Shown piece by piece: positions 9,224 to 25,835 of a stretch of DNA of 49,954 nucleotides. A model generated the notes under the pieces. It searched no databases, was not told the DNA's origin, and saw only the letters and a program-made list of their open reading frames with translations. Location: contig JBBDRK010000018.1 in NCBI GenBank assembly GCA_040905465.1, positions 2,475 through 52,428 on the forward strand, in the 5' to 3' direction. The DNA comes from Trueperaceae bacterium (GTDB taxonomy: Bacteria > Deinococcota > Deinococci > Deinococcales > Trueperaceae). The stretch's first letter is position 1, and each line of letters begins with the position of its first letter. Made by a program: the position numbers and the translations under genes.

Positions 9224-9248
9224 TACGACACCTCTCACGTCTTCGGTC

Positions 9249-11959: not shown

Positions 11960-12087
11960 GGAAAGTCCTCGGCACCCTCACTTCTGGGCCGAAGACCAGT
12001 CTGACCGATTCGATGGCCGGGCGTTGTGGAAGATTTCGTTTTGCGGCCTCGATCGGCAGTTGCCGACGAGGCCGCAAGCTGGCGGTG

Positions 12088-12669
12088 CTAGAAGGGGAGC
12101 AGGTTCCCCGGTCTGACGGTGATGGATATCGTGACGTCGTCGAGCCGGTAGTCTACGCCGCTCGCACTCGGGCCGGCGACGTACTCGAGCCGCACGCCCA
12201 AGCGAAAGTCGCCGCTCTTCAGCGTCGCCAGCGCATCGGGGTTTACCGAATCGCTGACCTCGACGGCGAATGTCAGTTGTTCCGTCTCCCCAGGTTCCAG
12301 GGAAACGGACGTGCTGGCAATGGCAGGGGAGTCGAACGGTGAGGCGTCGGACGAGTCGGAGATATGGAAAGATGCGGCGACCTCTTCGCTGCCAGTGGCC
12401 GCGTTCGACGTAATCGCGGCACTGAAGTCGAGAGTCAGGCCCTCGAGCCCTTCCAGCATCTGAGCCGGAACACCGAGTTGCTCCGCAGTCAGCCCTTCCT
12501 CATCGGGCAGCAGATACTCGTCGGCGGCCAGGCTGAACTCTCCGGCCCGTTCCTCGTCGGAGAGGAAGGAAAGGACGTCCGCCTCGACAGTCAACAAGGT
12601 GTGGCGACTGCAACCGGCAAGGAGAAGGAGCGTCACGGCGGTAAGTACCAGCGATCGCCTGAAAATCAT
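12088..12669 (-). CDS. Acidic lipoprotein of unknown function
   Basis: Signal II with lipobox LLAGC; 12 nt downstream of the OMP gene. Confidence 0.8.
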   Translation of the reverse strand: MIFRRSLVLTAVTLLLLAGCSRHTLLTVEADVLSFLSDEERAGEFSLAADEYLLPDEEGLTAEQLGVPAQMLEGLEGLTLDFSAAITSNAATGSEEVAASFHISDSSDASPFDSPAIASTSVSLEPGETEQLTFAVEVSDSVNPDALATLKSGDFRLGVRLEYVAGPSASGVDYRLDDVTISITVRPGNLLPF

Positions 12670-12681
12670 ATGGTCACCATC

Positions 12682-14070
12682 CTAGAAGCCGAAGCCCAGT
12701 CCGACGGCCGCTCCGACCGCTTGGTGAGCCGTGAAGGGAGAGCGGTAGGTGTGTACTGCCACGTCGAACCCGATACCAACCACGCGTACCCCTGCCCCGA
12801 CGCCGGCAGTCAGGCCATCGTCGAAGCCACCGCCGGCACGAAGCAGTAGTTGAACGATCTCGAAATCGTAGCCCCCTTCGACGCCCAGGTGACCGCTGAT
12901 CGCACCGTCGTCGTAGGCGCCGTCGGCCGCCACCAGAAGCGAGCCGAGGTCGGGCACGCCGAGTACCGCCGTGTCGAACTCGTACGCTACGTTGGCGTTT
13001 ACGCCGAACCGGTCGAAGAGGTAGGTGCGAGATGACGGAGTGGGGCCGGTCTGCGAGCTGGCTCCGAGACTGTCGCCGGCCACGGTCACCTCCATGCCCT
13101 GCCACAGCCCGATCCCGAGGTCGGTTACGCCCAGGCCGGCAGTCAGGCGTCCGTCGGGCGTCGGGAGCGTGACCGCAACCCCCAGGTCTCCGGTTACCCC
13201 ATAGCCTAGTCCGCCCTGGCCCACCAGCGCATAGAATCCGTCTCCCTCGTAGTCGTAGCCGAACTCGGTCTCGCCGTCGTCGTTCTCGGTGGTCGTTACC
13301 GTGAAAGTGCCGGTACCGTCGATTCGGGCGAGGCCGATGAACGGTTCAGCGCGCACTCCCAGGAAGACCTGGCCCGCGAAGGCTTCGCTGGCTGGGATGG
13401 GCAAGGCGGTTGCGTAAGTGACGTTCACGCCCACCCCGGCTTCGCCCTGCAGCCGTCCGGCGATCTCGCCGCTGCTGGTGCCCTCGTTGAACAGTTCGCC
13501 GAAGCCGGCGAGTGGGGTGAGGCGTCCGTCGGCATCTATGTATGGGCGGATGCCCAGCCCGACCGGCCCAACGTCGAACCCAATCGGCAGTTCGAACGCC
13601 TGCCCGTAACCGACCGGAGTTCCGTGGCTTATCTGCAAGGGGGAGCCGCCAACGAAGTCGATGGCCACGGCGGGCACCCCGTTGTCGTTTGCAACCGACA
13701 CGATTACCTCGTCAGGGCTGCGGGCGGGGTTCAGCAGCAAGGTGCCGAGGTGACTCGCCTGATCGAACGCGCTCAGCAGGTCGAACTGGTCGCTTCGCGG
13801 ATCGAGCTCCGGCCGGAGCAGGACGTTTACCGCTCCCAGCGGCAAGGGTAGGAAGAACGGCGTGCCGGCGTCAGGTAGTGCCCCGAATGCCGGATTGCCG
13901 CTTCCGTTGCTCGCCGGCGTGCTCGTGCCGCCCATTCCCAGTGAACGAACGCCTTGAGCATTGGCCATCGGCGTCGCCAACAGCGCGATCAACAGCGCGG
14001 CCAGCAGTGTTGCGACGACGAAACTCGCGGGTCGGTGAACGCGTGTACCGTCAGGGACCGGTTCGATCAT
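12682..14070 (-). CDS. Putative outer-membrane beta-barrel protein
   Basis: Signal peptide ending ANA-Q; GVRSLGMGG…NPA N-terminal motif; amphipathic beta strands; C-terminal Phe (GFGF); start at ATG 14070 after GGAGG. Confidence 0.75.
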   Translation of the reverse strand: MIEPVPDGTRVHRPASFVVATLLAALLIALLATPMANAQGVRSLGMGGTSTPASNGSGNPAFGALPDAGTPFFLPLPLGAVNVLLRPELDPRSDQFDLLSAFDQASHLGTLLLNPARSPDEVIVSVANDNGVPAVAIDFVGGSPLQISHGTPVGYGQAFELPIGFDVGPVGLGIRPYIDADGRLTPLAGFGELFNEGTSSGEIAGRLQGEAGVGVNVTYATALPIPASEAFAGQVFLGVRAEPFIGLARIDGTGTFTVTTTENDDGETEFGYDYEGDGFYALVGQGGLGYGVTGDLGVAVTLPTPDGRLTAGLGVTDLGIGLWQGMEVTVAGDSLGASSQTGPTPSSRTYLFDRFGVNANVAYEFDTAVLGVPDLGSLLVAADGAYDDGAISGHLGVEGGYDFEIVQLLLRAGGGFDDGLTAGVGAGVRVVGIGFDVAVHTYRSPFTAHQAVGAAVGLGFGF

Positions 14071-14224
14071 GCTTCCTCCTGCCGACCCCCCGAAGGTTGT
14101 CACCTTCCTGACGGACGCAAATGTAACACGTCCAACACTGGGAGCAACACCGGTAGATGAAGGGCAACGACCGTGCGATCGAGTCGCCGCCCAAGTGCTT
14201 GCGTTCGCGGGCTTTCGCTGGATA

Positions 14225-14947
14225 TTATTCGCTGTCTGGCGTACCGAACTCGAGCCGGCGTGTCTCGATCACCCGTCCGACGACTTCGGCAACATCCTCG
14301 GCCAGGACATAAGGCGGCGTGCCGTCGGTTGCTCTGGGATTCGCGCTTACCAGCTTCCAACCGAATCTGTCGTCCTTCAGCACCTTGCACACGTAGCCTT
14401 CCGAGGCGAGCCGCGCTACCACCGCAGCCCCGTCGTGGCCCTTGTCGTTGCGATCCACCAGCACAATGTCACCATTGAAGATTGGGCGCGGTCCCATTGC
14501 CATCGAATCGCCCCGGATGCGAAAGGCAATGAGGCTCTTGCTGCGCGCGACATAAGCGTCAACCCAGACATTGTCGTCCAGGATCTCGGCTTCCTGAACC
14601 GGTCCCGCTCCTACCCAACCTGCAACATGGACGGGCAGGCGGAGCACCTTTCGCGGGTTTGCGTTTTCGGCTCCCCGGGCAGCCGGTTCCAACTCGTAGA
14701 CGAGTTCGTGTAGCGGCACTTCCAGTGCTTCCGCCAGTCGTGCCAACGTTTCTATCGAGGGCTTCACGAATTTGCCGTGGCGCGACATCCTGCCCTGGAC
14801 CAAGCCGTAGACCGTCGTCGCTCCGATGCCTGAGAACTCTGCGAACTGCTCGAGCCTGACCATGCCGAGCTGTTCCATCTTTCGCAATATGCGTGAGTTG
14901 AACGGCCCGGTGGACCCTACTGCCGACTTCTTCGCAGGTCTAGGCAT
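14225..14947 (-). CDS. XRE-HTH / S24 peptidase repressor (CI/LexA-like)
   Basis: N-terminal HTH; Ala-Gly site (VGAG); catalytic Ser in RGDSM and Lys in VCKVL. Confidence 0.88.
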   Translation of the reverse strand: MPRPAKKSAVGSTGPFNSRILRKMEQLGMVRLEQFAEFSGIGATTVYGLVQGRMSRHGKFVKPSIETLARLAEALEVPLHELVYELEPAARGAENANPRKVLRLPVHVAGWVGAGPVQEAEILDDNVWVDAYVARSKSLIAFRIRGDSMAMGPRPIFNGDIVLVDRNDKGHDGAAVVARLASEGYVCKVLKDDRFGWKLVSANPRATDGTPPYVLAEDVAEVVGRVIETRRLEFGTPDSE

Positions 14948-15051
14948 AAGTGTAGCCTCCCTGACATTCTCGCACGTTAGAGCTTAGAGTATTTCAACGT
15001 TGGAGTAAAGGAGACTTCAACGGCACGAACTTCATCGGGAGGGATACGGGA

Positions 15052-15324
15052 ATGAGGGATCGTGACTTCGCCAATGCTGTAGATGCCGCTCTCTGGATAA
15101 GCCCATCAGGCGCCAGCCGCGACAACGGGGCGAACCTCGCGGCCGTCAGGTCGTCGATTGAAGAGCGCAGTCGTGCCATCGTCCTGTTGAACGAGCTGTT
15201 AGTCGCTCTCCTGCCTCTCTACCTTTGGCGAAGTCACGTCCACATGGCGCCGCCAATCCTCGAAGCGCTGCTCTTCGTGCAGGAACAGGCTGGCGGACAG
15301 GAACTCGCTGCGCCTCCTGAGTAG
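15052..15324 (+). CDS. Hypothetical protein divergent from the S24 repressor
   Basis: 90-aa ORF with a purine-rich upstream sequence; no recognised motif. Confidence 0.35.
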   Translation: MRDRDFANAVDAALWISPSGASRDNGANLAAVRSSIEERSRAIVLLNELLVALLPLYLWRSHVHMAPPILEALLFVQEQAGGQELAAPPE

Positions 15325-15372
15325 TCGATCGGTGTTAGCGGGGTGTCGGTGCGGCGGCTCGACTGGAGTGGC

Positions 15373-15669
15373 TCAACCTTTGCCACGGCGAACCCGCGAC
15401 CGCCGAGGCTGCGCCCTCAGTTCGTCGAACTCCCGGTCCGTCGGTTCACGCATGATGTGGCCGATGTCCTCGCCTATGGCTAGAGCTAATCTCCGCAGCG
15501 TGGCGGCGTACGGATTGAATGTCTTCTCTCGCGCCTCGCTTTCGTAACGCTGATAGGAGCGCACCGAGATGCCCAACCGTTCCGCGACATCCTCCTGCCG
15601 CAGATTCTTCGCCAGGCGCGCACGCTGTATGCGTCGACGGACCACGGCGAGATAGAGTTCGTCCGACAC
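15373..15669 (-). CDS. XRE family HTH transcriptional regulator (paralog 1)
   Basis: LRQEDVAERLGISVRSYQRYE HTH; NP..TLRRLA. Confidence 0.88.
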   Translation of the reverse strand: MSDELYLAVVRRRIQRARLAKNLRQEDVAERLGISVRSYQRYESEAREKTFNPYAATLRRLALAIGEDIGHIMREPTDREFDELRAQPRRSRVRRGKG

Positions 15670-15703
15670 CTCGCCATCATCGCGGCGTTCAGGAACTGTT
15701 GGA

Positions 15704-15721
15704 ACGATACAATGTTATCGT
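15704..15721. promoter_or_regulatory. Palindromic operator ACGATA-N6-TATCGT upstream of XRE paralog 1
   Basis: acgata caatgt tatcgt; same motif at the same distance upstream of paralog 2. Confidence 0.7.
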
Positions 15722-15903
15722 GTTGGCGGGCCTCCTTGGCGTGTCGACGCTCCTGCCGTCGCCTCTTTCCGAGCGAGTCGTCGCTCGGCATCCCTGCCCC
15801 GAACTCCCCGGTTCCGGCTCTGCCGAGACCCCTCCGGAGGCCACGGGCGATCGGTGGATTCGATCAGGGACGGGCGGCGGCAGGAGTGTTGATGAGTATT
15901 TCC

Positions 15904-16185
15904 TTACGCCCTGCGGTGAACGTCGGGGCTTTCGAGCGCGCGGAGCTCGCCGTTCGTCGGTTCTCGAACGATTTCGGCGACGTCCTCGCCGAGCGTAACG
16001 GCGATGCGACGCAGCGTCAGCGCATATGGGTTGAAGCGCTTATCGAGTCGGCCCATCTCATATCGCTGGTATGACCGAACCGAGATGCCGAGCTTTTCCG
16101 CGACATCCTCCTGCCGCAGGCCCCTCGAGAGACGCGCCATGCGAATTCTCTTTCGGACCACGGCAAGGTAGGCCTCATCCGTCAC
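15904..16185 (-). CDS. XRE family HTH transcriptional regulator (paralog 2)
   Basis: LRQEDVAEKLGISVRSYQRYE; clear duplicate of 15373..15669. Confidence 0.88.
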   Translation of the reverse strand: MTDEAYLAVVRKRIRMARLSRGLRQEDVAEKLGISVRSYQRYEMGRLDKRFNPYALTLRRIAVTLGEDVAEIVREPTNGELRALESPDVHRRA

Positions 16186-16219
16186 CGCCTCATCATCGCG
16201 ACGATTGTGGCCGACTTGA

Positions 16220-16237
16220 ACGATATCATGTTATCGT
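16220..16237. promoter_or_regulatory. Palindromic operator ACGATA-N6-TATCGT upstream of XRE paralog 2
   Basis: acgata tcatgt tatcgt. Confidence 0.7.
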
Positions 16238-16483
16238 GTTATGCGTAATTTCAAGCTGTGAGGTGCTGAATGACCTGAGCCCGTCATGTTGCTTCGTCCG
16301 CTGCCCTTCGTGCCGTCTCTCGCCAATGGAAGCCCAACCCGGGCGCCACGCGGTCTCTTGCTTCGCAAGGCCAGGACCGTCCCCCAATAGGCGAGGCCAA
16401 TCGGGTCGAGCGCCCGCGTTGGGTCAACCTGAGCTTACTTCAAATTGGTTTGTCGGCGCTCCAAACCTCCCTTGGGAGGTTCT

Positions 16484-18931
16484 ATGCATGCTCGAAGTGC
16501 ACTAGTCGTGCTGAGGGTGGTGGGCGCTGTCCTCGTGCTGTCCGTGGCAATCGCCCAGTCCGAGGACCGTCGTCGCTTTACGGTGGATGATCTTCTGTCC
16601 TTGCAGGCTCTCAACAAGGTAGTCCCCTCGCCCGCTGGCGACCTGATCGCCGTGGTGATCCAGCGTCCCGCGCAAGGAAACGGACCCGCAAACGAGAACA
16701 TGTTCTCGAACGACCGTGCGGACATCTGGCTCATCTCGGCAGAGTCGGGGGAGATAGAAAACCTCACCGACGGCACTGGTCGTGACAGTTACTTCAGCCC
16801 GCTATGGTCCCCGGACGGACAGCGACTCGCCATGCTTTCGACGGAAGGGAACGACGGCATCAGGCTCTATGTTTGGGACAGGTCGGGCGACTCGCTCAAG
16901 CGCCTGACGGAGCAGAGCGTGGATGTCGAGGCGAACTTCGGCGGAAGGAGCCTCTTCGACCGAGTGTCAGCAGTATGGCTGAACGACAGGGAACTCCTGA
17001 CCGTCCTCCTGCCTGTTGGTGAGCTGCCGGTCGATTACTTCACGTCCAATCCCCAAGGTGTGATCGTCCCCAAATGGGAGGCGACACAGGCCGGCCTCGA
17101 GCCGTCAGTAAGCGTCCTACACAGTAACGTGGGCAGCCCCGAAGACTGGACGCTAGAACGAACAATGGTGCGCATTGACGTCGAGAGCGGCGACATCACG
17201 GAGTTGACGAAAGGCGAAATTCGCGTGGTGAGCCTTTCACCCGACGGCCGGCGCGCGGCTATCATCACAGTCTCTGGACCCGATGAGCTTCCTGTCGAGG
17301 GAGGCCTGCCCTTCCCGCCAGGTTGGAACGTCTACACCTGGCGACCTTACGTGCACACGAAGCTGGCGGTCCTCGAACTCGAGGGCGCTGGCGAACTCAC
17401 CTGGTTTCCCGAGGTAGTCGATCCCAGCATTTTCACCTACAGGAGCGACCTGCAATGGTCGCCAAGCGCGGATTCACTCGCCGTCCTTGTCGAACGTGAC
17501 GAGAGCGCTGCCGGTCGCGCCCTCTTTCGGATCGACGTCAATGCAGCGGAAGCCGATCCCATCGGGGTCGGCGCGGCTAACATCTCGTCGTTCGCATGGT
17601 ACGGGGACGAACTTCTTTTGAACGTCGACGGGGATTGGCAGGTTGCTGCCCGCTCCGCAGAAGCGGCAGGCGGTGACTACGAGGATTTACCGCAACAACT
17701 TCGCGGCTTTGGAGCCGGCGGGCTCGCGGGGGTCAGCGACGACGACTTCTTTCTGCTCGGAGCGTCGGGTCGACTGACTAATGCAACAGAAGACTTCGCG
17801 CCCGCCATCCAGCGGATCATCTGGCCTTCAGCTACCAGCACCGACTCGAGCGGCGAATGGATACTCGGCACGTCGGACGGCATGTATCATGCGCTTGCAG
17901 AAGGCGATGCACTTCGCCTGAGCCCCGTCAAGTCCCCCGACGCCGCGGCCAGCTTTCTGGCTTACGCGCCGCCCAGCCAGACCGCAGTCTTCAATAAGTC
18001 CGATCCTGATGGGGACTACCTTTGGTCGGGTAATCCGCATACCGGCGATTACATCAATACGCTCTCCCTGAATACTCATCTGGCGCGAGTCGAGGACGCC
18101 GAGCGCATCCTCATCTCATACGAGAACGATGACGGCCAGCCGCTCAAGGGGCTCGTGGTGCTTCCCAAGGACTACCAGGAAGGGCGAGCCTACCCGCTAA
18201 TCGTCACCCTCTACACGGGCAGCGTGGTTCGAGACGAAGCCTACCGGCCGGCAAGCAAAAACCAGTCGCGCCTCTATCACCCGCTGCTCTTTACAGCGCG
18301 CGACTACGCTGTCCTGTACCCGAGCATTCCGCTGCCCAGCACTTCTGGGCCGATAGACCCGCTTTCAGAACTGAGCAAGAACGTATTGCCGGCGGTGGAC
18401 GAAGTTGTTCGCTTGGGCGTCGCTGACTCTGAGCGCATCGGCCTGTTGGGACACAGCTACGGAGGCTATGCCGTGGTCGGACTCCTCGGGCAGACAGAGC
18501 GCTTCAAGGCCGCTATCGCTTCTGCCCCATTCGTGGATCTCGCTGCCTACAACGATATGATTCCCTTCAAGCTGCGCTACTTCGACTTGGCCGCAGAATT
18601 GAGCCTGGTTTACTCGGCCGAGTTCGAGAACCCCAATGCCGTCCTGCGGATGGGAATCAGGCCGCAGCAGGATCCGGAACAGTATTCGCGCAATAGCCCG
18701 CTAGTCTACGCTGACCGCATCGAGAGTCCGCTCATGCTGATTCAGGGCGATCTGGATCCAGTGCCGATGGCGCAATCTGAGGCGCTATTCAAGCGTCTCA
18801 GACGCCAGGGAAACGAAGCGATGCTCGTGCGCTACTGGGGGGAAGGACACGTCATAATGTCGCCCGCCAACATAAGAGATGTGTTGGAGCGCATCTTCGG
18901 GTGGTTCGACACCTATCTCGGCGACGAGTGA
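16484..18931 (+). CDS. Secreted S9 prolyl-oligopeptidase-family enzyme; probable lasso peptide isopeptidase (AtxE2-like)
   Basis: RBS GGAGG; signal peptide; beta-propeller region with SPDG repeats; triad GHSYGG (Ser), QGDLD (Asp), GEGH (His); adjacent to lasso genes. Confidence 0.85.
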   Translation: MHARSALVVLRVVGAVLVLSVAIAQSEDRRRFTVDDLLSLQALNKVVPSPAGDLIAVVIQRPAQGNGPANENMFSNDRADIWLISAESGEIENLTDGTGRDSYFSPLWSPDGQRLAMLSTEGNDGIRLYVWDRSGDSLKRLTEQSVDVEANFGGRSLFDRVSAVWLNDRELLTVLLPVGELPVDYFTSNPQGVIVPKWEATQAGLEPSVSVLHSNVGSPEDWTLERTMVRIDVESGDITELTKGEIRVVSLSPDGRRAAIITVSGPDELPVEGGLPFPPGWNVYTWRPYVHTKLAVLELEGAGELTWFPEVVDPSIFTYRSDLQWSPSADSLAVLVERDESAAGRALFRIDVNAAEADPIGVGAANISSFAWYGDELLLNVDGDWQVAARSAEAAGGDYEDLPQQLRGFGAGGLAGVSDDDFFLLGASGRLTNATEDFAPAIQRIIWPSATSTDSSGEWILGTSDGMYHALAEGDALRLSPVKSPDAAASFLAYAPPSQTAVFNKSDPDGDYLWSGNPHTGDYINTLSLNTHLARVEDAERILISYENDDGQPLKGLVVLPKDYQEGRAYPLIVTLYTGSVVRDEAYRPASKNQSRLYHPLLFTARDYAVLYPSIPLPSTSGPIDPLSELSKNVLPAVDEVVRLGVADSERIGLLGHSYGGYAVVGLLGQTERFKAAIASAPFVDLAAYNDMIPFKLRYFDLAAELSLVYSAEFENPNAVLRMGIRPQQDPEQYSRNSPLVYADRIESPLMLIQGDLDPVPMAQSEALFKRLRRQGNEAMLVRYWGEGHVIMSPANIRDVLERIFGWFDTYLGDE

Positions 18932-18995
18932 AGCCGGGGCCGAACAAAAGGCAGGGTCAAATAGTACTACTAGAGGGCATAATCCAACAACTTGA

Positions 18996-19022
18996 AGAGG
19001 CGGGGAGATTTTCCCCGCCTCT
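18996..19022. terminator. Stem-loop between the convergent isopeptidase and precursor genes
   Basis: agaggcgggga-gattt-tccccgcctct: perfect 11-bp stem, 7 nt after the precursor stop. Confidence 0.75.
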
Positions 19023-19029
19023 ACTCGGC

Positions 19030-19128
19030 TCACAATCGGAAGCTGATGGATTCGGTACTACCTTCAACATCCCCGCGGGTCAAGCGGAGCGCTGAACCGA
19101 AGCAAATGAGTGTCGGTTTTACGTACAT
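19030..19128 (-). CDS. Lasso peptide precursor MYVKPTLICFGSALRLTR-GDVEGSTESISFRL (32 aa; not in the ORF track)
   Basis: Strong RBS AAAGGAGGTG; YxxPxL RRE-binding motif; Gly and Thr(-2) leader hallmarks; core Gly1 with Glu8; directly downstream of the cyclase and followed by a hairpin. Confidence 0.92.
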   Translation of the reverse strand: MYVKPTLICFGSALRLTRGDVEGSTESISFRL

Positions 19129-19160
19129 GTTTCACCTCCTTTCCACCAGCCTTGGTCACG

Positions 19161-20969
19161 TTACCGTCGTACGCCGGTCGCGGACCGGCGGCTGGGCAGA
19201 TTCGTCGGGTCGTCCTTGACGAAACGCGAGAAGAACCAGCGTTCGTCTGCGAGGATGTAAACGATTTCTGCATCGCGAGAGAGCCGGCCGTCCCGGAACG
19301 CCTCGGCCAACTCTCGCATGCGCTGCGCCTCGAGGACATTCAACTCGGCCAGAATCGGCTCGCGGAGCCAAGCACTGACGTTCGGCCAATTGGCTCGGAT
19401 CCCGAATGCGTAGGCTTCCGTAAAACCGGTTTTCAGTTTGCGCTCGAGAATGGCCTGCGGGAGTCGCCCGCTCATGGCCTCTCGCAGCACCCGTTTGCCG
19501 ATCCCACCGCCTGCCTTCAAGGCCGCCGGCGTCGCGAGCGCGTGCTCTACGAGCGGCCTGTAGAGGAAGGGGTAACGAAACTCGACCGCAAGCCGTGGCT
19601 GCTGCCGTAGACCCGGTTCGGTCGAGCGAAGGAAATTGACTGCGTCCAGGTTGCCATCTGCCTGCCTGGCGACGCTGGTTGACAGTGCATGCTCCATGGC
19701 CCGAGCCTTGCGCGCAACCTTTGCGGAGGCCCATGGGAGCCTTGCGACCGGAATGCGACCTGGCAGCAAGGTGCTCTTCGCGACCGACCAAAACGGCTTC
19801 TCGCGCGCGTCACCCCACATTCGCAACTCCCGGTAGGCACTGAGGAACCGGCCCTCCTGCAACAGCTGCCGCGCCGCACCCACGCCGCCAGTCATCGTGC
19901 CGTCACTACCGTGTCCCGACAGAACTATGCGACAACCTGCCGGCAACGACTGATACAGTCCGACGCGGACCCCGAACAGGACGTCCTGAGTCGGCTCATC
20001 GAACATCGTCGGCAGGCAGAGCCCGGAGTCTGCTCCGCCTGGCTCATGGTGCTCGGCGTACACCCGCTTCCATGGGCGAGATCCTACCAGCGGACGGCTG
20101 AATTCACGCTCGTCCACCGTCGGCCATGCGTCCGACACGATCGAGAGGGCGAGGGGCACTGTGCCGAGGCTCAATGCAGTCGCGTAGATGCTCGTAGAGT
20201 CCATACCGCCCGAGACGTCGCATCCGATCTGGCCCCGCCCACGCAAGGCAGCCTGAACCGCTTGATCGAGCAGCGCTCGTGTCCGCTCCGCGGCCTCCGC
20301 GGTTTCCATACGCTGGTACCTGACCGGCAACTCGTAATATCTCCAGAATCGCGCCGGCTTCCCTGGTTCCGCCACTACCGATTCGCCCGGCATCAGCCGC
20401 TTAACGCTCCTATACGGTGTCAAAGTAGTAGGCGGCACGAGTGCTGCGAGCTGAAGCAGAAAGTAGTCGCGGTCCAGGTGCGCGCCAACCCGGGGGTGGG
20501 CCGTAAGAGCGCCGATTTCGGAGGCCATCGCGAACAAACCGTTGGACTCCGCGAAGAAAAGCGGCCTCACTCCAAACCGATCCCGAAACGCCAACACTCG
20601 CTCGCCATCCCATGCGATCACGGCGAAATCGCCTTCCAGCTTGCTTGGCGCGGTATCCCCCCACTTGGCGATAGCTGCAGCCACCAGTTCGGCTTCCGAT
20701 GCTTCATTGTTCATGCCGAGCGATGCTTCCAGATCTGGGCGGTTGTCCAACCGCGCATCGGCCGCCACCGTTACGTTGCGCACGGTTACAGGTTGATGCC
20801 CGTCCTCCGGCAGCGTGTCGAGCCTGGCGCAACCTATCGTCAGGGGACCCAAGGTGAGACTGTCACTACCGTCGGGCGCGCGCGACTCAAGCGCCCGCAG
20901 CATTGGCGCGAGTGCACCGGACCCCGCCTGGCTTGATGTGAGTTCAAGGATTGCGGCAATGCCACTCAT
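19161..20969 (-). CDS. Lasso peptide cyclase (C protein, asparagine synthetase-like)
   Basis: AsnB fold with N-terminal MSGI (no glutaminase Cys); SGGMDS ATP-PPase motif; RYPFL; coupled to B1/B2. Confidence 0.93.
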   Translation of the reverse strand: MSGIAAILELTSSQAGSGALAPMLRALESRAPDGSDSLTLGPLTIGCARLDTLPEDGHQPVTVRNVTVAADARLDNRPDLEASLGMNNEASEAELVAAAIAKWGDTAPSKLEGDFAVIAWDGERVLAFRDRFGVRPLFFAESNGLFAMASEIGALTAHPRVGAHLDRDYFLLQLAALVPPTTLTPYRSVKRLMPGESVVAEPGKPARFWRYYELPVRYQRMETAEAAERTRALLDQAVQAALRGRGQIGCDVSGGMDSTSIYATALSLGTVPLALSIVSDAWPTVDEREFSRPLVGSRPWKRVYAEHHEPGGADSGLCLPTMFDEPTQDVLFGVRVGLYQSLPAGCRIVLSGHGSDGTMTGGVGAARQLLQEGRFLSAYRELRMWGDAREKPFWSVAKSTLLPGRIPVARLPWASAKVARKARAMEHALSTSVARQADGNLDAVNFLRSTEPGLRQQPRLAVEFRYPFLYRPLVEHALATPAALKAGGGIGKRVLREAMSGRLPQAILERKLKTGFTEAYAFGIRANWPNVSAWLREPILAELNVLEAQRMRELAEAFRDGRLSRDAEIVYILADERWFFSRFVKDDPTNLPSRRSATGVRR

Positions 20970-21361
20970 GGCGTGGCCTCGACGTCCCGAACTATCGGTA
21001 GGCTCTCAACCAGCGCTGTGAATTCGCGCCTCACAGCTTGTCGGTCACTCAGAACCTGCCCGTCGCACTCGACCCAAGCGTGTGCCGCGAACGGGAAGCG
21101 CCGAACGGCGATCACCAGGGACACCGGGTATCCGCGCCGCCTAAGCAAGCGGGCGATGGCGATGGCTTGGGGCAGACAACGCGCGCCCGGGCGGTAATAG
21201 AGCGCTGCCGCCTGCACCTGTCGAGCGCACATTCGCATCGATCGCATTTCGGCTGAAGTGACCTCTCTGTTGCAGCAGTCCGGTAGGCTCGCTACCACTC
21301 GCTGGACTCCTCGCGTCAGGACGTCGAGGTCTGCCCGCACGAGGGCAAGATATGAAGTCAC
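20966..21361 (-). CDS. Lasso peptide leader peptidase B2 (transglutaminase-like)
   Basis: RCLPQA catalytic Cys; PFAAHAWVE His motif. Confidence 0.93.
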   Translation of the reverse strand: MTSYLALVRADLDVLTRGVQRVVASLPDCCNREVTSAEMRSMRMCARQVQAAALYYRPGARCLPQAIAIARLLRRRGYPVSLVIAVRRFPFAAHAWVECDGQVLSDRQAVRREFTALVESLPIVRDVEATP

Positions 21362-21636
21362 GACTTGCCGCGTTGCAGGAGCCCAACGCGTTGCAGGTCG
21401 TGCAGAAGGGACCGCATGTCGCTTGAAACGACGTCAACGGAAACTTCATAGTCCTCCGAAATCTTAAGTACCGTCGCCGCTAGGTCGTCGTGCTCCAGGG
21501 CGCGCCAGATGCGAACCCCAATGTCGTCCAACCCGAAGTACTGGCCGTTGGGCGATATCAGTAGGAGGCTTTCGCCGTCGGCCGTCACCCGAACGTCGTG
21601 CGGTATCGTCCAACTGCCGGTTTCATCTGCTGTCAT
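21358..21636 (-). CDS. Lasso RiPP recognition element B1 (PqqD family)
   Basis: YFGLDDIGVRIWRAL…YEVSVDVVSSDMRSLLHDLQRVGLL PqqD/RRE pattern; 92 aa. Confidence 0.92.
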   Translation of the reverse strand: MTADETGSWTIPHDVRVTADGESLLLISPNGQYFGLDDIGVRIWRALEHDDLAATVLKISEDYEVSVDVVSSDMRSLLHDLQRVGLLQRGKS

Positions 21637-21683
21637 GCCATATCTTCCGGGTGCCCGGACTACCGCGCAATCCTCGTTCAGTG

Positions 21684-21701
21684 CTAGCCCATTTGGGCTA
21701 G
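21684..21701. promoter_or_regulatory. 18-bp inverted repeat upstream of the lasso operon (candidate LuxR/NarL-type operator)
   Basis: CTAGCCCA-TT-TGGGCTAG, perfect 8-2-8. Confidence 0.5.
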
Positions 21702-21742
21702 TCGCTTGGCAGTAGTAGAAAGCGGGAGGGGAGCATTGATGG

Positions 21743-22498
21743 CTAGCGCCAATCCGGTTCCCCTGTCTTCAGTTCGCATGCGGGGAACGGAATCAGGCCA
21801 TCGCGGATTGCGCAGAGGACCGCCGTGATCCTATCCGGTGCTCCGAGCTTGTGCCGAACGTTCATGACGTGCTGCTTTACTGTGTTCTCCGAGATGTTCA
21901 ACTGGCCGGCGACGCGCTTTATCCGCTGTCCGTGCGCCAGTGCCTCGAGAACCTCCAGCTCGCGGGGCGTCAGCAGCCTTCGTCGCGTGGCAGGACTACC
22001 TGCTGTTTCCAACTGGTCGGCGGCAAGTACGATACCCGCGCTGAACCGGGCCGGATCCGTCAACCTCGTGCCCCCGGGAGGCGTGATTCGCCAGTGCCCG
22101 ACCCTTACGGCGTCGAGAGAACGCTCCCGCGTCAGGAGCACGGGTACGAGCGGGTTCGCAGCAGCCCAAGCGAGGGCGACTGGTTCTGAACAATTGTCGA
22201 TGATGAGCAGTTCCGCTTCCAGCCACCGGGGTACACCCGAGGTGGCAAAAACCGGGCAGCGCTCACTGAGTACGCTCAGAAAAGCCGGCTCCCCTACGCA
22301 AGCGACGGTCGGAAAGCGGACGTTGATGCTTTCGGCGCGGTTGACGCCAGCTTCGTGCCGATCGGTTTCCCGTCGATCCCAGCCCATAGCAGCCCCCTGC
22401 CATACCAGGACAATTAGGAGAGTCCGGCATCCTGCGGCAGCCGCCGAGCGTTTGACGGATGCCGGCAGATTCTGCCGGCGCTTGTCACGCCTCTTCAA
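21743..22498 (-). CDS. LuxR/NarL C-terminal HTH transcriptional regulator (start uncertain, possibly ATG 22387 or later)
   Basis: LTPRELEVLEALAHG…ISENTVKQHVMNVRHKLG; degenerate receiver-like N-terminus. Confidence 0.85.
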   Translation of the reverse strand: MKRRDKRRQNLPASVKRSAAAAGCRTLLIVLVWQGAAMGWDRRETDRHEAGVNRAESINVRFPTVACVGEPAFLSVLSERCPVFATSGVPRWLEAELLIIDNCSEPVALAWAAANPLVPVLLTRERSLDAVRVGHWRITPPGGTRLTDPARFSAGIVLAADQLETAGSPATRRRLLTPRELEVLEALAHGQRIKRVAGQLNISENTVKQHVMNVRHKLGAPDRITAVLCAIRDGLIPFPACELKTGEPDWR

Positions 22499-22653
22499 TA
22501 AACCAAGGGAACCTCAGCTGGTCCTTACCGCCGCCTTACCCGGGATCATCGTCGACAGATTGATCGCCGGCCGAGTTCCGGCCGCACCATTGGGTTGCTC
22601 AGCAAATTGCCGTTGTATTCCACTGCGATGCCGCCCGCCGGTGGCATGACACG

Positions 22654-22929
22654 TTAGTCACGGTCTTCCAGTTCCCGTAACTCGTTCTCCGAAGGTGGCC
22701 GCAGCAGGTCCGCCAAGTCGATTCCAATGGCCATCGCAATTTTGTAGAGGGACTTCAATCGGGGATCCGAGACGTCGGATTCTCGCGCCTCGTACCGCTG
22801 CAGGATACGGACGTCGGCCGGGATCTTTCCGGCAACGTCTTCCTGGCTTAGCCCTCTGGTACGGCGCGCCTGCCTGATCCGCAGCCTGATGACGTCGAAA
22901 AGTAGGCGAAAAGCTGCATCATCGGCCAC
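22654..22929 (-). CDS. XRE family HTH transcriptional regulator (paralog 3, diverged)
   Basis: RIRQARRTRGLSQEDVA…LQRYE…DPRLKSLYKIA…P..NELREL, aligns with paralogs 1 and 2. Confidence 0.85.
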   Translation of the reverse strand: MADDAAFRLLFDVIRLRIRQARRTRGLSQEDVAGKIPADVRILQRYEARESDVSDPRLKSLYKIAMAIGIDLADLLRPPSENELRELEDRD

Positions 22930-23022
22930 ACGCCCATAATCGGAACGGTAGGAACCAAATGAACACGACAGACCTGTCGGGTTATCGACAGGCCCCGCAT
23001 CGGCGTAAGATCAGCTTTTACA

Positions 23023-25467
23023 GTGTGGCTCGAACGGCGGCTAGACCGGATCTGGCGCCATGACGCCGTGATCTTGAATGCGCCTCCGAAGATGGGGGTG
23101 CATAGGCTGATTTCTGCCGCTGCCGGTGATGGGCCGCTGGCATGGGTGGTGCTGGAAGCAACTGATCGAGGAGACCCGATCGCCCAAGGCATCAAGCTGT
23201 CGGACGGCCTGGCTGTCGCGGTGGGAAGCCGGCTGTTCCCGCGTGCTACCCCGGTCAATGCTGGCCTGGGATTGCTCAGGCGCTATCTTGATGCGCTGCG
23301 CCCGATTACGCTCGCACTTTCCGGCGTGGGAAACGGCGTGGAACTCGCAGCCGGCCTCATCGCCCTTCGGGCTCCGGACTGCCGCGTTTTACTGAGTGAC
23401 GACGCGATCTCCCTATCTGCGCTTACCGAACTCGCCGGATGTTCCGGCGCTCTGGTCCTCGACGAAGAAGCCCTCCGCCTGACCATGGTCGAAGCGAAGG
23501 TCGAGACTGCTGGACACGTTTCGGACGCGGATCTGCGGCGTCACCTGGACGAGACGGGCCATGCTTATGAGAGCTTACTGGTTCGGCTCGGAACGTCATA
23601 CGGCGACGCCATAAGTTCGGATCCGACTGCCGGCGGTCCCGACGTCACACCGGACCTCGAGATCGACATTCTGCTCGAGGCAGGCGAGTGGAGAGAGGCG
23701 GCTGAGTTGGCCGTGCGCAAGGCCTCGGCGAGGGCTCCCATGGTACTGCGGGACGTCGCCCCCATGTTCCATGAGCATGGTCTGCACCGAGCACTGTGGC
23801 GCCTGCTCGAACAGATTTCCAGCGAGGTTATTCGAGACGACGAGATTCTCTATTGGGAACTGACCGCCGCCGTAAGGTTAGGCAAGCAGCACGAGGTTCG
23901 CGATGTCGTGGAGGCGCGTCTCGCAAGTCGCGAGGCACCGGATCTGCGCGCCCTCCACGCGGGCGTGTTCCTGGACGTTGGGGACGCACGCCTGGAGGTT
24001 GAACGCGCATATCGAGCCCGGCAAACGGCCTTCACGGCTTATCAGTATGGACGCGTCCTGGCGAATGCCCGCGAGGGTGCGAGGATCCTCAAGGGGGCAG
24101 TGCGACTGGCAGAGGGCAGTGGGAGAGAGTACGACGTAACGCGCAACGCCAGCGCCTTGACGGCCCGACTGATCGATTCCGGTGAATATTCGCAGGCGGC
24201 GAGCTGGGGAGAGTGGGCGTTGGCTCGCTTCGACCGGCTGGAGTTGAGCAACACCCAGCAACGGCTCTACATCCTCAACAACTGGGCGTACGCGCGCCTA
24301 TTGACAGGCGAATCCGTCGGGTTGGAGGGGCTGCTGCGCGAGGCAGAGCAGGAGCTAGCAGGCGCATTCCCGGGCCTCAGGGCGCAGTTCCGCTCGACAC
24401 TTGGGGACTTTCTACTGGCCATGGACCGAGCCGATGAGTCGCTCGAGTACTACCAGACCAACTACGAAGAGGCACCCCGGAAGATGAAGGGAATTCGCGC
24501 GCTGAACCTGGTGAGAGCACTGTTGGAACAGGCTCCGGAGGAAGTCAAGTACGCGCGCGCGATTGCGAATGAGGCCTACGCCCTGAGCAGCATAGACGGA
24601 TGGGACTACCACCGCTCGGCTGTTCTGGCGTTGGGAATGGTGCTTGCGGTTTGCGATCCATACTCCGCCGAAGAGCATCTGACGCAAGTTCTCCGGAAAG
24701 AGCACGTCGCGTTACCGGTACCCCAGCACGTGCAGGCGACGCTGTACCTCGCATGCTCCAAGTTGGCGCTGGGCGAGTCGGAGCAGGCGCGGTCGCTAGT
24801 TGAGGGTTGCCCCAACGGCCTGAAATTCCTCACCGCGACCGGACTCCGACTGCTCGCCGGGCCGCCGGCGCGATTTCGTGAACTCTGGTCCTGGTGTAGC
24901 GGCAACTCGCCGACTCTCGAGCTTCGCTTTATGGGTCGCCGGGAAGTCCTCGTCAGAGGCGAGACGGTGTCTTTGGGCCTCCAGGCTTGTACCTTGCTGG
25001 CGCTTCTATCGCAATTTCCGCGAGGGCTGACTGCGACGCAACTGCTGTCCCACCTGAAGTACGAGAGCAGGAACTCGGCCGCACTCTACGCGGCCCTCTC
25101 CAAGCTCCGTCAACTGGTGCCGATCTCCGCGCCGCCTTACCGGCTCGAGGTGGACGTCACGGCCGACTTCATAGAAGCGCCGAAGTTGCTCCGTGACGGC
25201 CGGCTTCGCAGCGCGCTGGAACTCTACCGCGGTCCGCTGCTCGAGGAATCCGACGCGCCCGGAATCGTCGACCTGCGATCTTTCATCGACGAATCGTTCC
25301 GCCAGGCGACTCTTGTAGTTCACGATCCCGAGGCGAGCATGGCCCTTGCCCAACGGGTTGGTGATGATCTGGAGCTTTGGGAGCATGCCCTGGATTCGTT
25401 GAATTCGAACGACCCTCGGGCCCTCTTGGCGAGGGCCCGAGTTGCGCAGCTTCGTCGCGAGTACTAG
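23023..25467 (+). CDS. Large TPR-like regulator with C-terminal wHTH/BTAD-like region (MalT/SARP-related)
   Basis: Degenerate P-loop (NAPPKMG), helical repeats, C-terminal LELRFMG…LYAALSKLR…ALELYRGPLLEESDAP. Confidence 0.75.
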   Translation: MWLERRLDRIWRHDAVILNAPPKMGVHRLISAAAGDGPLAWVVLEATDRGDPIAQGIKLSDGLAVAVGSRLFPRATPVNAGLGLLRRYLDALRPITLALSGVGNGVELAAGLIALRAPDCRVLLSDDAISLSALTELAGCSGALVLDEEALRLTMVEAKVETAGHVSDADLRRHLDETGHAYESLLVRLGTSYGDAISSDPTAGGPDVTPDLEIDILLEAGEWREAAELAVRKASARAPMVLRDVAPMFHEHGLHRALWRLLEQISSEVIRDDEILYWELTAAVRLGKQHEVRDVVEARLASREAPDLRALHAGVFLDVGDARLEVERAYRARQTAFTAYQYGRVLANAREGARILKGAVRLAEGSGREYDVTRNASALTARLIDSGEYSQAASWGEWALARFDRLELSNTQQRLYILNNWAYARLLTGESVGLEGLLREAEQELAGAFPGLRAQFRSTLGDFLLAMDRADESLEYYQTNYEEAPRKMKGIRALNLVRALLEQAPEEVKYARAIANEAYALSSIDGWDYHRSAVLALGMVLAVCDPYSAEEHLTQVLRKEHVALPVPQHVQATLYLACSKLALGESEQARSLVEGCPNGLKFLTATGLRLLAGPPARFRELWSWCSGNSPTLELRFMGRREVLVRGETVSLGLQACTLLALLSQFPRGLTATQLLSHLKYESRNSAALYAALSKLRQLVPISAPPYRLEVDVTADFIEAPKLLRDGRLRSALELYRGPLLEESDAPGIVDLRSFIDESFRQATLVVHDPEASMALAQRVGDDLELWEHALDSLNSNDPRALLARARVAQLRREY

Positions 25468-25586
25468 TCCGCGTCGGCTGTCTCCTGCACGTCCGCGGAA
25501 TTGACGACAGGGTCGGTGGGCCGGTCTGGATCGGCCAGACCAAACGAGACAGCAAGCACCAGGATCAGCACGACAAGTCTTTTCAT
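25464..25586 (-). CDS. Small secreted peptide MKRLVVLILVLAVSFGLA-DPDRPTDPVVNSADVQETADAD (40 aa; not in the ORF track)
   Basis: RBS TAAGGAG; classic Sec signal (MKR, hydrophobic core, GLA cleavage); stop overlaps the regulator stop (CTAG). Confidence 0.75.
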   Translation of the reverse strand: MKRLVVLILVLAVSFGLADPDRPTDPVVNSADVQETADAD

Positions 25587-25702
25587 TGCGAGTCTCCTTA
25601 AGTGACGTGCTGCGCAGCTCCTGTCAGCCTATGGACTCGTCTTTACCCGGCACTGACCGCATACGGGCCGTTTCGGGCAAGGTGTAGGTTAGGAGAGCGT
25701 CG

Positions 25703-25817
25703 GCAAGCGCTTGACACCGTGGACGAAAAACGACTATCGTCAAACCAATCGAAATCTAGCAATCGTTTGCAGAGCTAGGCACCAGCAGTATCGACGCCGT
25801 TGCTGCAATCGATTGCA
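25703..25817 (+). promoter_or_regulatory. LacI gene promoter with LacI-type operators
   Basis: TTGACA (25711) -18- TATCGT (25735); operators gcaagcgcttg (25703), gcaatcgtttgc (25759), perfect tgcaatcgattgca (25804). Confidence 0.75.
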
Positions 25818-25835
25818 AAAGGTAGGGATCTTGAT

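Follow-up and report, generated by a model that had tools for sequence, protein, structure and literature searches.

Architecture of the locus

The locus lies in a stretch of DNA of 49,954 nucleotides (the whole of which is called the window below), whose host the original prediction had taken to be a member of Deinococcota; in agreement, contigs of the same genus carry the NCBI label Trueperaceae. The locus brings together a lasso peptide operon on the reverse strand and a convergent gene for a secreted peptidase, with the following features:

16464..16481, no strand: perfect palindrome of 18 nt that overlaps the peptidase gene's ribosome-binding site (from the sequence; coordinates hand-counted)
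16484..18931, + strand: secreted S9 (prolyl-oligopeptidase-fold) serine peptidase, 815 aa (PF00326, E = 1.1e-30)
18996..19020, no strand: GC-rich hairpin between the convergent genes, 11-bp stem and 5-nt loop (minimum-free-energy and centroid folds)
19030..19128, - strand: precursor gene A, 32 codons, an ORF 32 nt after C with a strong Shine-Dalgarno site
19161..20969, - strand: C, lasso cyclase, Asn-synthase-like, 602 aa, PP-loop intact (PF00733 plus GATase domains)
20966..21361, - strand: B2, transglutaminase-like leader peptidase, 131 aa, Cys62/His94 (PF13471, NF033537)
21358..21636, - strand: B1, PqqD-like RiPP recognition element, 92 aa (PF05402)
21684..21701, no strand: perfect palindrome of 18 nt between the LuxR-type gene and B1 (from the sequence; coordinates hand-counted)
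21743..22498, - strand: LuxR/GerE-type HTH regulator, 251 aa, directly upstream of B1 (PF00196, E = 2.1e-16)
22654..25467, divergent pair: XRE-type HTH gene (22654-22929, - strand) and a gene for an 814-aa protein (23023-25467, + strand)

The original prediction had read this as a complete cluster with a split B protein and the precursor last, comprising a coupled PqqD/RRE protein, a Cys-His peptidase and an AsnB-like cyclase devoid of the glutaminase Cys. The ORFs and the Pfam and NCBIfam matches bear this out, with all three proteins at the positions given above, and the four Pfam models that it had nominated (PF05402, PF13471, PF00733 and PF00326) all matched. The B1/B2 and B2/C junctions each show an overlap of 4 nt with intact reading frames, and B1, B2 and C are translationally coupled. 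B1 matches PF05402 (PqqD) with an E value of 9.8e-12 (45.5 bits; cut-off 23.4), and its top NCBIfam matches are the lasso PqqD models, yet below their cut-off (34 versus 80). B2 is recovered both by PF13471 (E = 3.6e-26, 91.8 bits) and, above the cut-off of 33 bits, by the lasso B2 model NF033537 (87 bits); its Cys62 and His94 are invariant across seven aligned B2 sequences or domains. For C, the lasso cyclase model NF033535 gives the top NCBIfam match, with 235 bits, under the cut-off of 525. Because C begins Met-Ser-Gly, with Ser at residue 2, where the glutaminase Cys would be expected, it lacks this Cys, and its PP-loop, S253-G-G-x-D-S258, is invariant in an alignment of 12 cyclases. The gene caller starts C at Met23 (P0121, 580 aa, versus the 602-aa ORF), which is probably too short, because homologues keep the longer N-terminus.

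The precursor and its predicted product

The precursor consists of a leader of 18 residues, with a YxxPxL...G motif and Thr at position -2, and a core of 14 residues, in which Gly1 and Glu8 predict an 8-residue ring and a 6-residue tail. The lasso motif rule (YxxPxL leader, Thr at -2, small core residue 1, Asp or Glu at positions 7 to 9) reportedly goes back to Tietz et al. 2017, and a core of 14 residues would rank among the shortest known lasso cores. Over nine loci the leader keeps its Tyr, Pro and Gly without exception, and eight of the nine precursors have Thr(-2); the leader is kept in three same-genus loci and five loci of other phyla, and the cores diverge. Hence B1, B2, C and the precursor, as judged from the genes, all show the features of a lasso gene set of the split-B type.

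These features suggest that B1-B2-C-A forms a lasso product. B1 would bind the YxxPxL leader of the precursor, B2 would cleave after the Thr-x site, and C would use ATP to activate Glu8, closing an 8-residue Gly1-Glu8 ring round the 6-residue tail. The predicted product of the operon, which is possibly linked to the LuxR-type regulator, is a small, class-II-type lasso peptide with a predicted monoisotopic mass of 1477.70 Da; with its 14-residue core it is small and easily tested by mass spectrometry.

The convergent S9 peptidase

The original prediction of a PF00326 peptidase with a signal peptide, convergent to the operon, was borne out by Pfam and by inspection of the N-terminus. The same ATG is used in the gene-caller protein P0001, with a GGGAGG site 4 nt upstream, and it opens a hydrophobic signal sequence with a putative cleavage after Ala24 (both by eye); a signal sequence is likewise seen by eye in the AtxE2-family ORFs. 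The protein combines a large beta-propeller with an alpha/beta-hydrolase domain, and its triad, Ser658/Asp758/His789, is invariant across 39 homologues. This AtxE2-type arrangement of propeller and hydrolase fold with a Ser-Asp/Glu-His triad is common to all S9 enzymes and does not discriminate among them. In a Foldseek comparison of the AlphaFold2 model (pLDDT 85.2, pTM 0.86), the nearest solved structures are the S9 carboxypeptidases 8wt1 and 7ep9, with SpI-IsoP only in 8th and AtxE2 in 36th place, so the fold gives no pointer to isopeptidase chemistry. The best match among solved structures by both sequence (83 bits) and Foldseek (E = 2.5e-34) is 8wt1, an S9 carboxypeptidase of Geobacillus stearothermophilus, which has the same propeller-plus-hydrolase architecture and triad; it differs in being about 650 aa long, against 815 aa and a larger propeller in the window's enzyme, and the two share 18-20% identity in the structural alignment. 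8wt1 is not known to occur in a lasso context.

The "isopeptidase" label given in the original prediction did not survive family assignment. On NF033523, the AtxE2-family model with a cut-off of 400 bits, the peptidase reaches 99.3 bits and 16 of its homologues reach 57-109 bits, in contrast to 437-678 bits for genuine AtxE2-family members; the Dpp5 model scores the family about as well as the AtxE2 model does. The phylogenetic tree separates the nine AtxE2-family rows from the 34 rows of the peptidase's family, each set a clade of its own with SH-aLRT 100; it does not settle how the two branch relative to generic S9 enzymes. We therefore reject membership of the AtxE2/SpI-IsoP family, and, with the peptidase outside it, "isopeptidase" becomes a description drawn from gene context, by which ring opening may be regarded as a candidate activity.

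Recurrent linkage of the peptidase family to lasso operons

To place the peptidase in its genomic context, 80 homologue loci were fetched, of which the 60 with at least 2.5 kb of downstream flank were informative. In 11 of these 60, tblastn detected C and B2 immediately downstream in convergent orientation. All 11 belong to Gemmatimonadota and Acidobacteriota and have the precursor last, with one to five precursor genes between the peptidase and C/B2. Every lasso-linked locus with at least 3 kb of upstream sequence (8/8) has a gene for a TonB receptor or an outer-membrane barrel just upstream on the peptidase strand, against only 9 of 54 other homologue loci. Taken as a whole, the family extends beyond lasso biology: the remaining 49 of the 60 loci have no lasso genes by tblastn, and 45 of the 54 have no such receptor.

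A Pfam scan of six lasso-linked loci placed beside the S9 gene a same-strand receptor, of the TonB type in five and, in L102, from a different family of outer-membrane beta-barrels, and revealed FecR in three (L047, L099 and L105). Facing this module are A, C and B, joined in L047, L099 and L105 by an ABC exporter. The layout of a FecR/receptor/S9 module opposite A, C and B follows the same logic as the known isopeptidase clusters described in the available text of PMC9266682. The IQ-TREE phylogeny groups the window's peptidase with six of the nine lasso-linked rows in a clade of 14 rows (SH-aLRT 99), and the closest row beyond its own trio is lasso-linked. Moreover, the closest peptidase (P0003, 70% identity) and the closest cyclase (P0122, 71%) come from one JGI contig of 5,241 bp, a size that suggests that the two genes may be adjacent. 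Soil-metagenome contigs of a second study, with 80-95% likeness, cover parts of the peptidase gene and of C/B2/LuxR; none of them spans the junction between peptidase and operon.

Related loci within the Trueperaceae

Three lasso loci of the same genus likewise have the precursor last; at the convergent position they carry a gene for a secreted SBP_bac_5 binding protein and no peptidase, which makes the peptidase an accessory and no fixed part of the lineage's cluster. At E<=1e-10, neither of the two same-genus genomes yielded the peptidase, and among 38 other relatives six gave weak matches to the catalytic domain only (28-38% identity over 144-280 residues). This distribution indicates an enzyme that moves with the locus and has no housekeeping role. 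The original prediction that no ABC exporter or TonB-dependent receptor is adjacent holds for the entire window, whose 42 ORFs yielded neither an ABC_membrane exporter nor a TonB receptor by Pfam. Among 25 genomes searched in the order, the Plug domain was found in one and not found in the other 24; it was not found in G000, which is 95% complete.

Comparison with known systems

That isopeptidase-bearing lasso clusters are best described in Alphaproteobacteria, as the original prediction stated, agrees with a 2026 review, which places isopeptidase genes "primarily in alpha-proteobacteria" (PMC13352647). Such clusters, in the available text of PMC9266682, have a TonB-dependent transporter and a sigma/anti-sigma pair by the peptidase, a GntR gene before the precursor and no ABC exporter. 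The clusters of astexin (AtxE1/AtxE2), sphingopyxin I (SpI-IsoP) and benenodin (BenE) resemble the window in having a secreted two-domain S9 peptidase tail-to-tail with the lasso genes, and the window shares with the alphaproteobacterial clusters the adjoining peptidase and the lack of an ABC exporter. The receptor and FecR of these clusters recur in the relatives of the window's peptidase (receptor or barrel in 6/6 and FecR in 3/6 Pfam-scanned loci). The window itself, in contrast, has split B1/B2 genes, a precursor that is last and not first, a Deinococcota host, a peptidase outside the AtxE2 family, and LuxR and XRE regulators in place of GntR, FecI/FecR or a TonB receptor; Pfam found no TonB transporter, sigma/anti-sigma pair or GntR among its 42 ORFs.

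The rubrinodin cluster, as far as the available text of PMC9266682 describes it, has an isopeptidase, an ABC transporter, a TonB receptor and FecI/FecR. The Gemmatimonadota loci L047, L099 and L105 share this combination (ABC exporter, S9 peptidase, receptor and FecR), and the window differs in having neither exporter nor receptor and in its peptidase family. Another parallel is offered by Group II of the metagenomic lasso BGCs in Negri et al. 2025, which the accessible part of PMC12670498 describes as having split B1/B2 and prolyl-oligopeptidase genes, the latter mentioned without being characterized. Compared by description only, they are, like the window, nonproteobacterial split-B clusters with an S9/POP gene; there, however, the POP genes lie between core genes, whereas the window's peptidase is convergent and outside the operon. 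No characterized equivalent of the cluster turned up in the literature searched, which upholds one part of the earlier claim that it is probably undescribed; the architecture as such, B-C-A facing an S9 gene, recurs in two other phyla. Likewise, the precursor-last, peptidase-facing order is present as claimed, but with 11 recurrences among 60 homologue loci it is not confined to this genome.

Possible roles of the peptidase

On balance, we lean toward the proposal that B1-B2-C-A makes a lasso peptide and that the convergent S9 enzyme is its dedicated extracytoplasmic hydrolase. The peptidase would be exported by Sec, may act on the lasso peptide after export of the latter and, as AtxE2 does, would most likely open the isopeptide bond; both its action on the product and the bond cut are suggested by the gene context. 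In diderm phyla with TonB systems, members of the same family share an operon with genes for FecR and a TonB-dependent receptor; in the present lineage, for which the search gave no TonB receptors, the peptidase stands by itself, and its place is taken in sister species by a secreted SBP_bac_5 binding protein.

A rather unlikely alternative, which still deserves serious weight, is that the operon is real and the peptidase an unrelated neighbor, a secreted oligopeptidase of general function that would scavenge peptides. Such a reading would account for the 49 informative loci without detectable lasso genes, the three same-genus lasso loci without the peptidase and a family-level similarity that is that of generic S9 enzymes, and it would fit a locus within a possible mosaic island (the low-GC block at 14-26 kb with XRE/LexA-type genes). 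It sits poorly, however, with a convergent layout seen again at 11 loci from two other phyla, with the position of the window's enzyme in a lasso-enriched subclade, with nearest peptidase and cyclase homologues that appear on one short contig, and with the secreted peptide-handling protein that sister species again have at the same position. Unlikelier still is a peptidase tied to the lasso peptide without opening its ring, one that would act as a carboxypeptidase on C-terminal residues of the tail, remove by-products that are unthreaded or linear, or break down related peptides from competitors. Its placement outside the AtxE2 family and the S9 carboxypeptidases 8wt1 and 7ep9 as best solved matches speak for this, as do prolyl-oligopeptidase genes in split-B metagenomic clusters, to which the accessible part of Negri et al. 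2025 (PMC12670498) assigns no role; against it, related loci have a FecR/receptor/peptidase module like the one found with proven isopeptidases, and a 6-residue tail would presumably offer little to trim without unthreading.

We regard as highly improbable an inactive cluster, or one that yields no lasso product, in which C would be a degenerate paralogue of Asn synthase and the short ORF would not serve as a precursor. C and B1 do fall under the curated NCBIfam cut-offs, and the core would count as one of the shortest known; nevertheless, B2 exceeds its own curated cut-off, the frames are all intact and translationally coupled, the catalytic motifs of B2 and C are conserved, and the precursor has a strong ribosome-binding site and a leader that is conserved across loci while the cores diverge.

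Extending the proposal of a dedicated hydrolase, we tentatively raise a broader possibility, of which we are doubtful: a second S9 family, apart from AtxE2, might open lasso peptides across Gemmatimonadota, Acidobacteriota and Deinococcota, with the module reduced in Trueperaceae to interchangeable secreted parts. If so, the "retrieve and open" parts of Trueperaceae would be a hydrolase in one species and, in its sister species, an SBP_bac_5 binding protein feeding an ABC importer; the lasso peptides would be shuttles or signals, taken back or switched off by their producer, and not antibiotics; and the logic of uptake and hydrolysis would have evolved or been rebuilt independently of the alphaproteobacterial system. 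The biological role of isopeptidase-accompanied lasso peptides is called enigmatic in the available text of PMC9266682. With a distinct S9 family tied again and again to lasso operons in three further phyla, "make, export, reopen" would become a general principle and new enzymes that recognize threaded substrates would become available, and the swap of peptidase and binding protein between sister Trueperaceae would be a natural experiment on retrieval by the producer. For genome mining, family-based rules may miss or mislabel precursor-last clusters and non-AtxE2 peptidases.

Intergenic elements and neighboring regulators

The predicted hairpin between precursor and peptidase is present and is a probable bidirectional terminator, albeit with a weak T-tail and missed by a consensus terminator scan. 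Of the two palindromes, the one overlapping the ribosome-binding site of the peptidase is possibly an operator, and the one upstream of B1 possibly an operator or a terminator. The LuxR-type gene is a possible regulator of the cluster; one same-genus locus, L016, has a homologue of it upstream of B1. From 14 to 26 kb the window has a GC content below that of its flanks and contains several XRE/LexA-type genes, and this block may thus be a mosaic island. The 814-aa protein of the divergent pair gave no Pfam hits; in a sister species, L017 keeps the pair by its lasso operon, with 50% identity for the XRE protein and 51% over 576 residues for the 814-aa protein (tblastn).

A lasso operon with the precursor gene last

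The putative lasso-peptide operon, the hairpin behind it and the convergent S9 peptidase gene are arranged in the window as follows.

21358-21636, minus strand: B1, the RRE, a PqqD protein of 92 aa (PF05402, E 9.8e-12)
20966-21361, minus strand: B2, the leader peptidase, a Transglut_core3 protein of 131 aa (Pfam E 3.6e-26)
19161-20969, minus strand: C, the cyclase, an Asn_synthase/GATase protein of 602 aa (Pfam and NCBIfam)
19030-19128, minus strand: A, the precursor, a 32-codon ORF 32 bases past the C stop, with a strong Shine-Dalgarno site
18996-19020: GC-rich hairpin with an 11-bp stem, starting ten bases past the A stop
16484-18931, plus strand: S9 peptidase of 815 aa (PF00326, E 1.1e-30), convergent with A

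The original prediction had named these five genes and the hairpin as a complete lasso cluster with a convergent secreted isopeptidase, and all of them are present and were correctly described. Four-base overlaps occur at both the B1/B2 and the B2/C junctions. B2 scores 87 bits against the NCBIfam lasso B2 model (cut-off 33), and neither its Cys62 nor its His94 varies among seven aligned B2 sequences or domains; likewise, the PP-loop of C, Ser253-Gly-Gly-x-Asp-Ser258, is invariant across 12 aligned cyclases. The N-terminus of C reads Met-Ser-Gly and hence lacks the glutaminase Cys of true AsnB; the AsnB-like genes of family-level relatives start Met-Cys-Gly. The gene caller's 580-aa version of C, starting at Met23, is probably mis-started, and we favor the 602-aa form because the longer N-terminus is conserved in homologues and overlaps B2 by 4 nt. 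No close relative was returned when genome contigs were queried with the cyclase. A second Asn-synthase-like gene in the host genome (G000:C47:2841-3764) was considered as the mark of another lasso cluster and not adopted. This gene (L002:688-2625, minus strand) encodes 645 aa, likewise without the N-terminal Cys, and shares 34% identity with the cyclase across residues 66-361.

The precursor displays a YxxPxL...G leader, Thr at position -2, and Gly1 and Glu8 in the core, for which we predict a 14-residue product with an 8-membered ring, a 6-residue tail and a monoisotopic mass of 1477.70 Da ([M+H]+ 1478.71, [M+2H]2+ 739.86). Three lasso loci in two sister genomes of the same genus (L015, L016 and L017) share the B1-B2-C order with 41-44% cyclase identity, and in each, a 34-codon ORF comes after C, sharing the leader of A but encoding a different 15-residue core with Gly1 and Asp8; a terminal precursor is the rule in this lineage. 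Nine precursors from nine loci all keep the leader Tyr, Pro and Gly, and eight of them have Thr(-2). Since the leader is conserved while the cores diverge, as expected of a RiPP precursor, A is, on this pattern, a real one. The hairpin was not called by a consensus terminator scan, and the 96-nt intergenic stretch is unremarkable as a whole in its folding (z = -1.77); the stem itself is stable.

By what is known of these families, B1 would bind the leader, B2 would cleave after Thr-x, and C would adenylate Glu8 and close the ring around the tail. The peptidase would be exported by the Sec pathway and meet the lasso peptide outside the cytoplasm. That the cluster is instead inactive seems very improbable beside the invariant residues of B2 and C and the conserved leader.

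A peptidase family distinct from AtxE2

The peptidase gene has its own GGGAGG ribosome-binding site, and its product has an N-terminal signal sequence, as read by eye, so that the mature enzyme would begin at about residue 25. The Ser658/Asp758/His789 triad is invariant across 39 homologues. Its relatives comprise two 70%-identical metagenome proteins and many full-length proteins that are about 800 aa long and 30-38% identical. The best NCBIfam match is nominally the model for the family of AtxE2, a known lasso isopeptidase, but the score is 99.3 bits where the cut-off is 400; 16 homologues score 57-109 bits on this model and 73-111 on the Dpp5 model, while genuine AtxE2-family members from Sphingomonadales reach 437-678 bits. 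A sequence search of solved structures places a Geobacillus S9 carboxypeptidase (8wt1) on top at 83 bits, with AtxE2 at 28 bits. Similarly, an AF2 model of the peptidase (pLDDT 85.2, pTM 0.86) matches the carboxypeptidases 8wt1 and 7ep9 first, whereas the lasso isopeptidase SpI-IsoP comes eighth and AtxE2 36th.

In an IQ-TREE tree of 50 rows, from which one locus (L023) was left out for its implausible longest ORF, nine AtxE2-family proteins form one clade and 34 rows of the window's peptidase family form a separate one (SH-aLRT 100 for each); the branching among these two and the generic S9 enzymes is not settled by this tree. The window peptidase and its two 70% relatives form a long branch inside a 14-row clade (SH-aLRT 99) that holds six of the nine lasso-linked rows. 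A FastTree tree of 75 rows, omitting eight loci with fragments shorter than 640 aa, agrees on this position. A Rudaea cellulosilytica scaffold carries several paralogues of the family clustered in roughly 25 kb (G042:C1:2084935-2108539).

Recurrent linkage of the family to lasso operons

An alignment of these relatives, used to scan one genome per species, yielded 80 loci, and in 60 of them 2.5 kb or more of sequence follows the peptidase gene. In 11 of these 60 (L047, L057, L061, L071, L073, L082, L099, L100, L101, L102 and L105), tblastn places a cyclase and B2 directly downstream of the peptidase on the other strand, with one to five precursor genes in between; all 11 are from Gemmatimonadota or Acidobacteriota. 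Six of them were scanned with Pfam. Opposite the peptidase these carry A, C and B, with B fused in L099 and L102 and split in L101. A receptor gene lies directly upstream of the peptidase on the same strand in all six, which is of the TonB type (Plug plus beta-barrel) in five and of another outer-membrane barrel family in L102; the receptors of L099 and L071 also match STN in part, with scores under Pfam's cut-off. L047, L099 and L105 additionally have a FecR gene on the peptidase strand and an ABC exporter on the lasso side. More generally, all eight lasso-linked loci whose upstream sequence reaches 3 kb or more have a receptor gene, versus 9 of the 54 others. A review gives this receptor/peptidase layout as the logic common to every known isopeptidase cluster, the exporter-bearing rubrinodin variant among them (PMC9266682).

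Several side observations concern these loci. Tandem precursors, about 3-5 per locus and with differing cores, lie between the cyclase and peptidase genes of L047 (~9030-9700), L105 (about 12570-13600) and L101 (about 12040-12920). Two precursors (L073:2706-2843 and L099:12589-12723, both minus strand) have Asn at the expected core position 1, which follows the Thr-x site. Asn1 as a ring residue was first reported for metanodin in 2025 (PMC12670498); judging from these sequences, it may be commoner than thought. In the lasso-linked S9 gene of a Pyrinomonadaceae MAG (L061:3392-6061), codon 750 is an in-frame stop, so that the gene is a pseudogene or was misassembled.

A binding protein in place of the peptidase in sister genomes

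Closer to the window, the nearest peptidase (P0003, 70%) and the nearest cyclase (P0122, 71%) are each encoded on a JGI contig 5,241 bp long, which the two genes would nearly fill; the equal size would fit their being neighbors on one contig. The other 70%-identical peptidase, P0002, is encoded on a contig of 13,578 bp. Soil metagenomes of a second study contain short contigs of 80-95% likeness covering parts of the peptidase and cyclase genes, and none of the contigs from other samples bridges the peptidase/precursor junction. A peptidase query against metagenome contigs returned one weak, irrelevant locus. The peptidase was not found in the two same-genus genomes at E<=1e-10, and 6 of the other 38 relatives gave weak matches, confined to the catalytic domain. 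There is no peptidase beside the lasso operons of L015, L016 and L017. The convergent position is instead taken by an SBP_bac_5 protein (an ABC binding protein of the peptide type) that is 596-615 aa long and bears a signal sequence.

L015:2497-4344, minus strand: SBP_bac_5 gene
L016:3166-5013, minus strand: SBP_bac_5 gene
L017:6886-8676, plus strand: SBP_bac_5 gene

These three copies are only 54-77% identical to each other, yet they have been kept with the operon. No permease genes lie beside them, and the host of the window has no close homologue (best match, 29% identity). The swap may mean that the lasso peptide is taken back up, with the SBP_bac_5 protein of the sister species providing, via an ABC importer, an entry route equivalent to a TonB receptor.

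Possible roles of the peptidase

The original prediction called the peptidase an isopeptidase. Membership of the AtxE2 family is contradicted by both the model score and the separate clade, and the recurrent lasso context speaks for the label; we regard it as plausible, and not as a family assignment. Taking the linkage together with the convergent placement, we favor, at somewhat better than even chances, a dedicated role for the peptidase on the lasso peptide, and hold ring opening specifically to be a little less probable than that. The main alternative is that the enzyme is an unrelated scavenger that happens to sit next to the operon. Overall, the family extends beyond lasso biology, since tblastn detected no lasso genes at 49 of the 60 loci with enough downstream sequence; the same search found none at three non-linked loci from the window's own subclade (L055, L067 and L085). 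The recurrence of the convergent layout in two other phyla and the lasso-linked members of that same subclade weigh on the other side, and we judge the scavenger unlikely, if a serious contender. Less likely again is that the peptidase is linked to the operon for other chemistry, such as trimming of the tail or clearing of by-products; the carboxypeptidases heading its structural matches would suit this, and the receptor/peptidase module that related loci share with isopeptidase clusters speaks against it.

Comparison with known systems

Among known systems, the isopeptidase clusters of Alphaproteobacteria come closest. The window resembles these in layout and, like AtxE-type clusters, has no D gene; it differs from them in the family of its peptidase, in lacking a fused B, in not being precursor-first and in having no receptor/sigma module. 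Isopeptidase genes are placed "primarily in alpha-proteobacteria" in a 2026 review (PMC13352647), and Negri et al. 2025 note, without studying them, that three metagenomic clusters of the split-B type contain prolyl-oligopeptidase genes (PMC12670498). Full-text searches of the freely accessible literature, hence without the RODEO survey, turned up no account of Deinococcota lasso clusters or of S9-linked ones in Acidobacteriota or Gemmatimonadota. What is new in the window is the Deinococcota host, the receptor-less form, the exchange of peptidase and binding protein between sister species, and the very short core.

Host and genomic surroundings

The host genome (3.53 Mb in 81 contigs, 95% complete, with the window on contig C18) belongs to Trueperaceae, a family within Deinococcota, which agrees with the phylum first guessed from the sequence. 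The related cyclases of the two same-genus genomes lie on contigs of 55,043 and 225,540 bp. The reported lack of an adjacent exporter or TonB-dependent receptor was borne out, in that Pfam found neither an ABC_membrane exporter nor a TonB receptor among 42 window ORFs. The Plug domain, which the same search detected in E. coli, Caulobacter and Bacteroides as controls, is found in one of 25 genomes searched in the order (G014, three matches on two short contigs) and not in the host or its two sister genomes; hence, a receptor/FecR module is not expected in this lineage.

A LuxR-type gene lies directly upstream of B1 and has a homologue in L016, while a divergent pair of an XRE gene and a gene for an 814-aa protein is conserved in L017.

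23023-25467, plus strand: 814-aa protein with no Pfam or NCBIfam match

The latter, which may be a regulator, is 51% identical over 576 residues to a protein encoded beside the G002 lasso operon (L017:12126-13841). Perfect 18-nt palindromes (coordinates counted by hand) cover the ribosome-binding site of the peptidase (16464-16481) and lie upstream of B1 (21684-21701). It is possible that these genes and palindromes are regulators or regulatory sites.

The lasso block (14001-26000) has a GC content of 0.58-0.63 versus 0.64-0.69 in its flanks. Besides the lasso locus, it contains a gene for a LexA-like S24 repressor (14225-14947) and three XRE paralogues (15373-15669, 15904-16185 and 22654-22929); it may be an acquired island. 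A minus-strand gene (12682-14103) encodes a 473-aa protein with no Pfam or NCBIfam match, whose signal sequence and C-terminal aromatic residue make it look like an outer-membrane beta-barrel.
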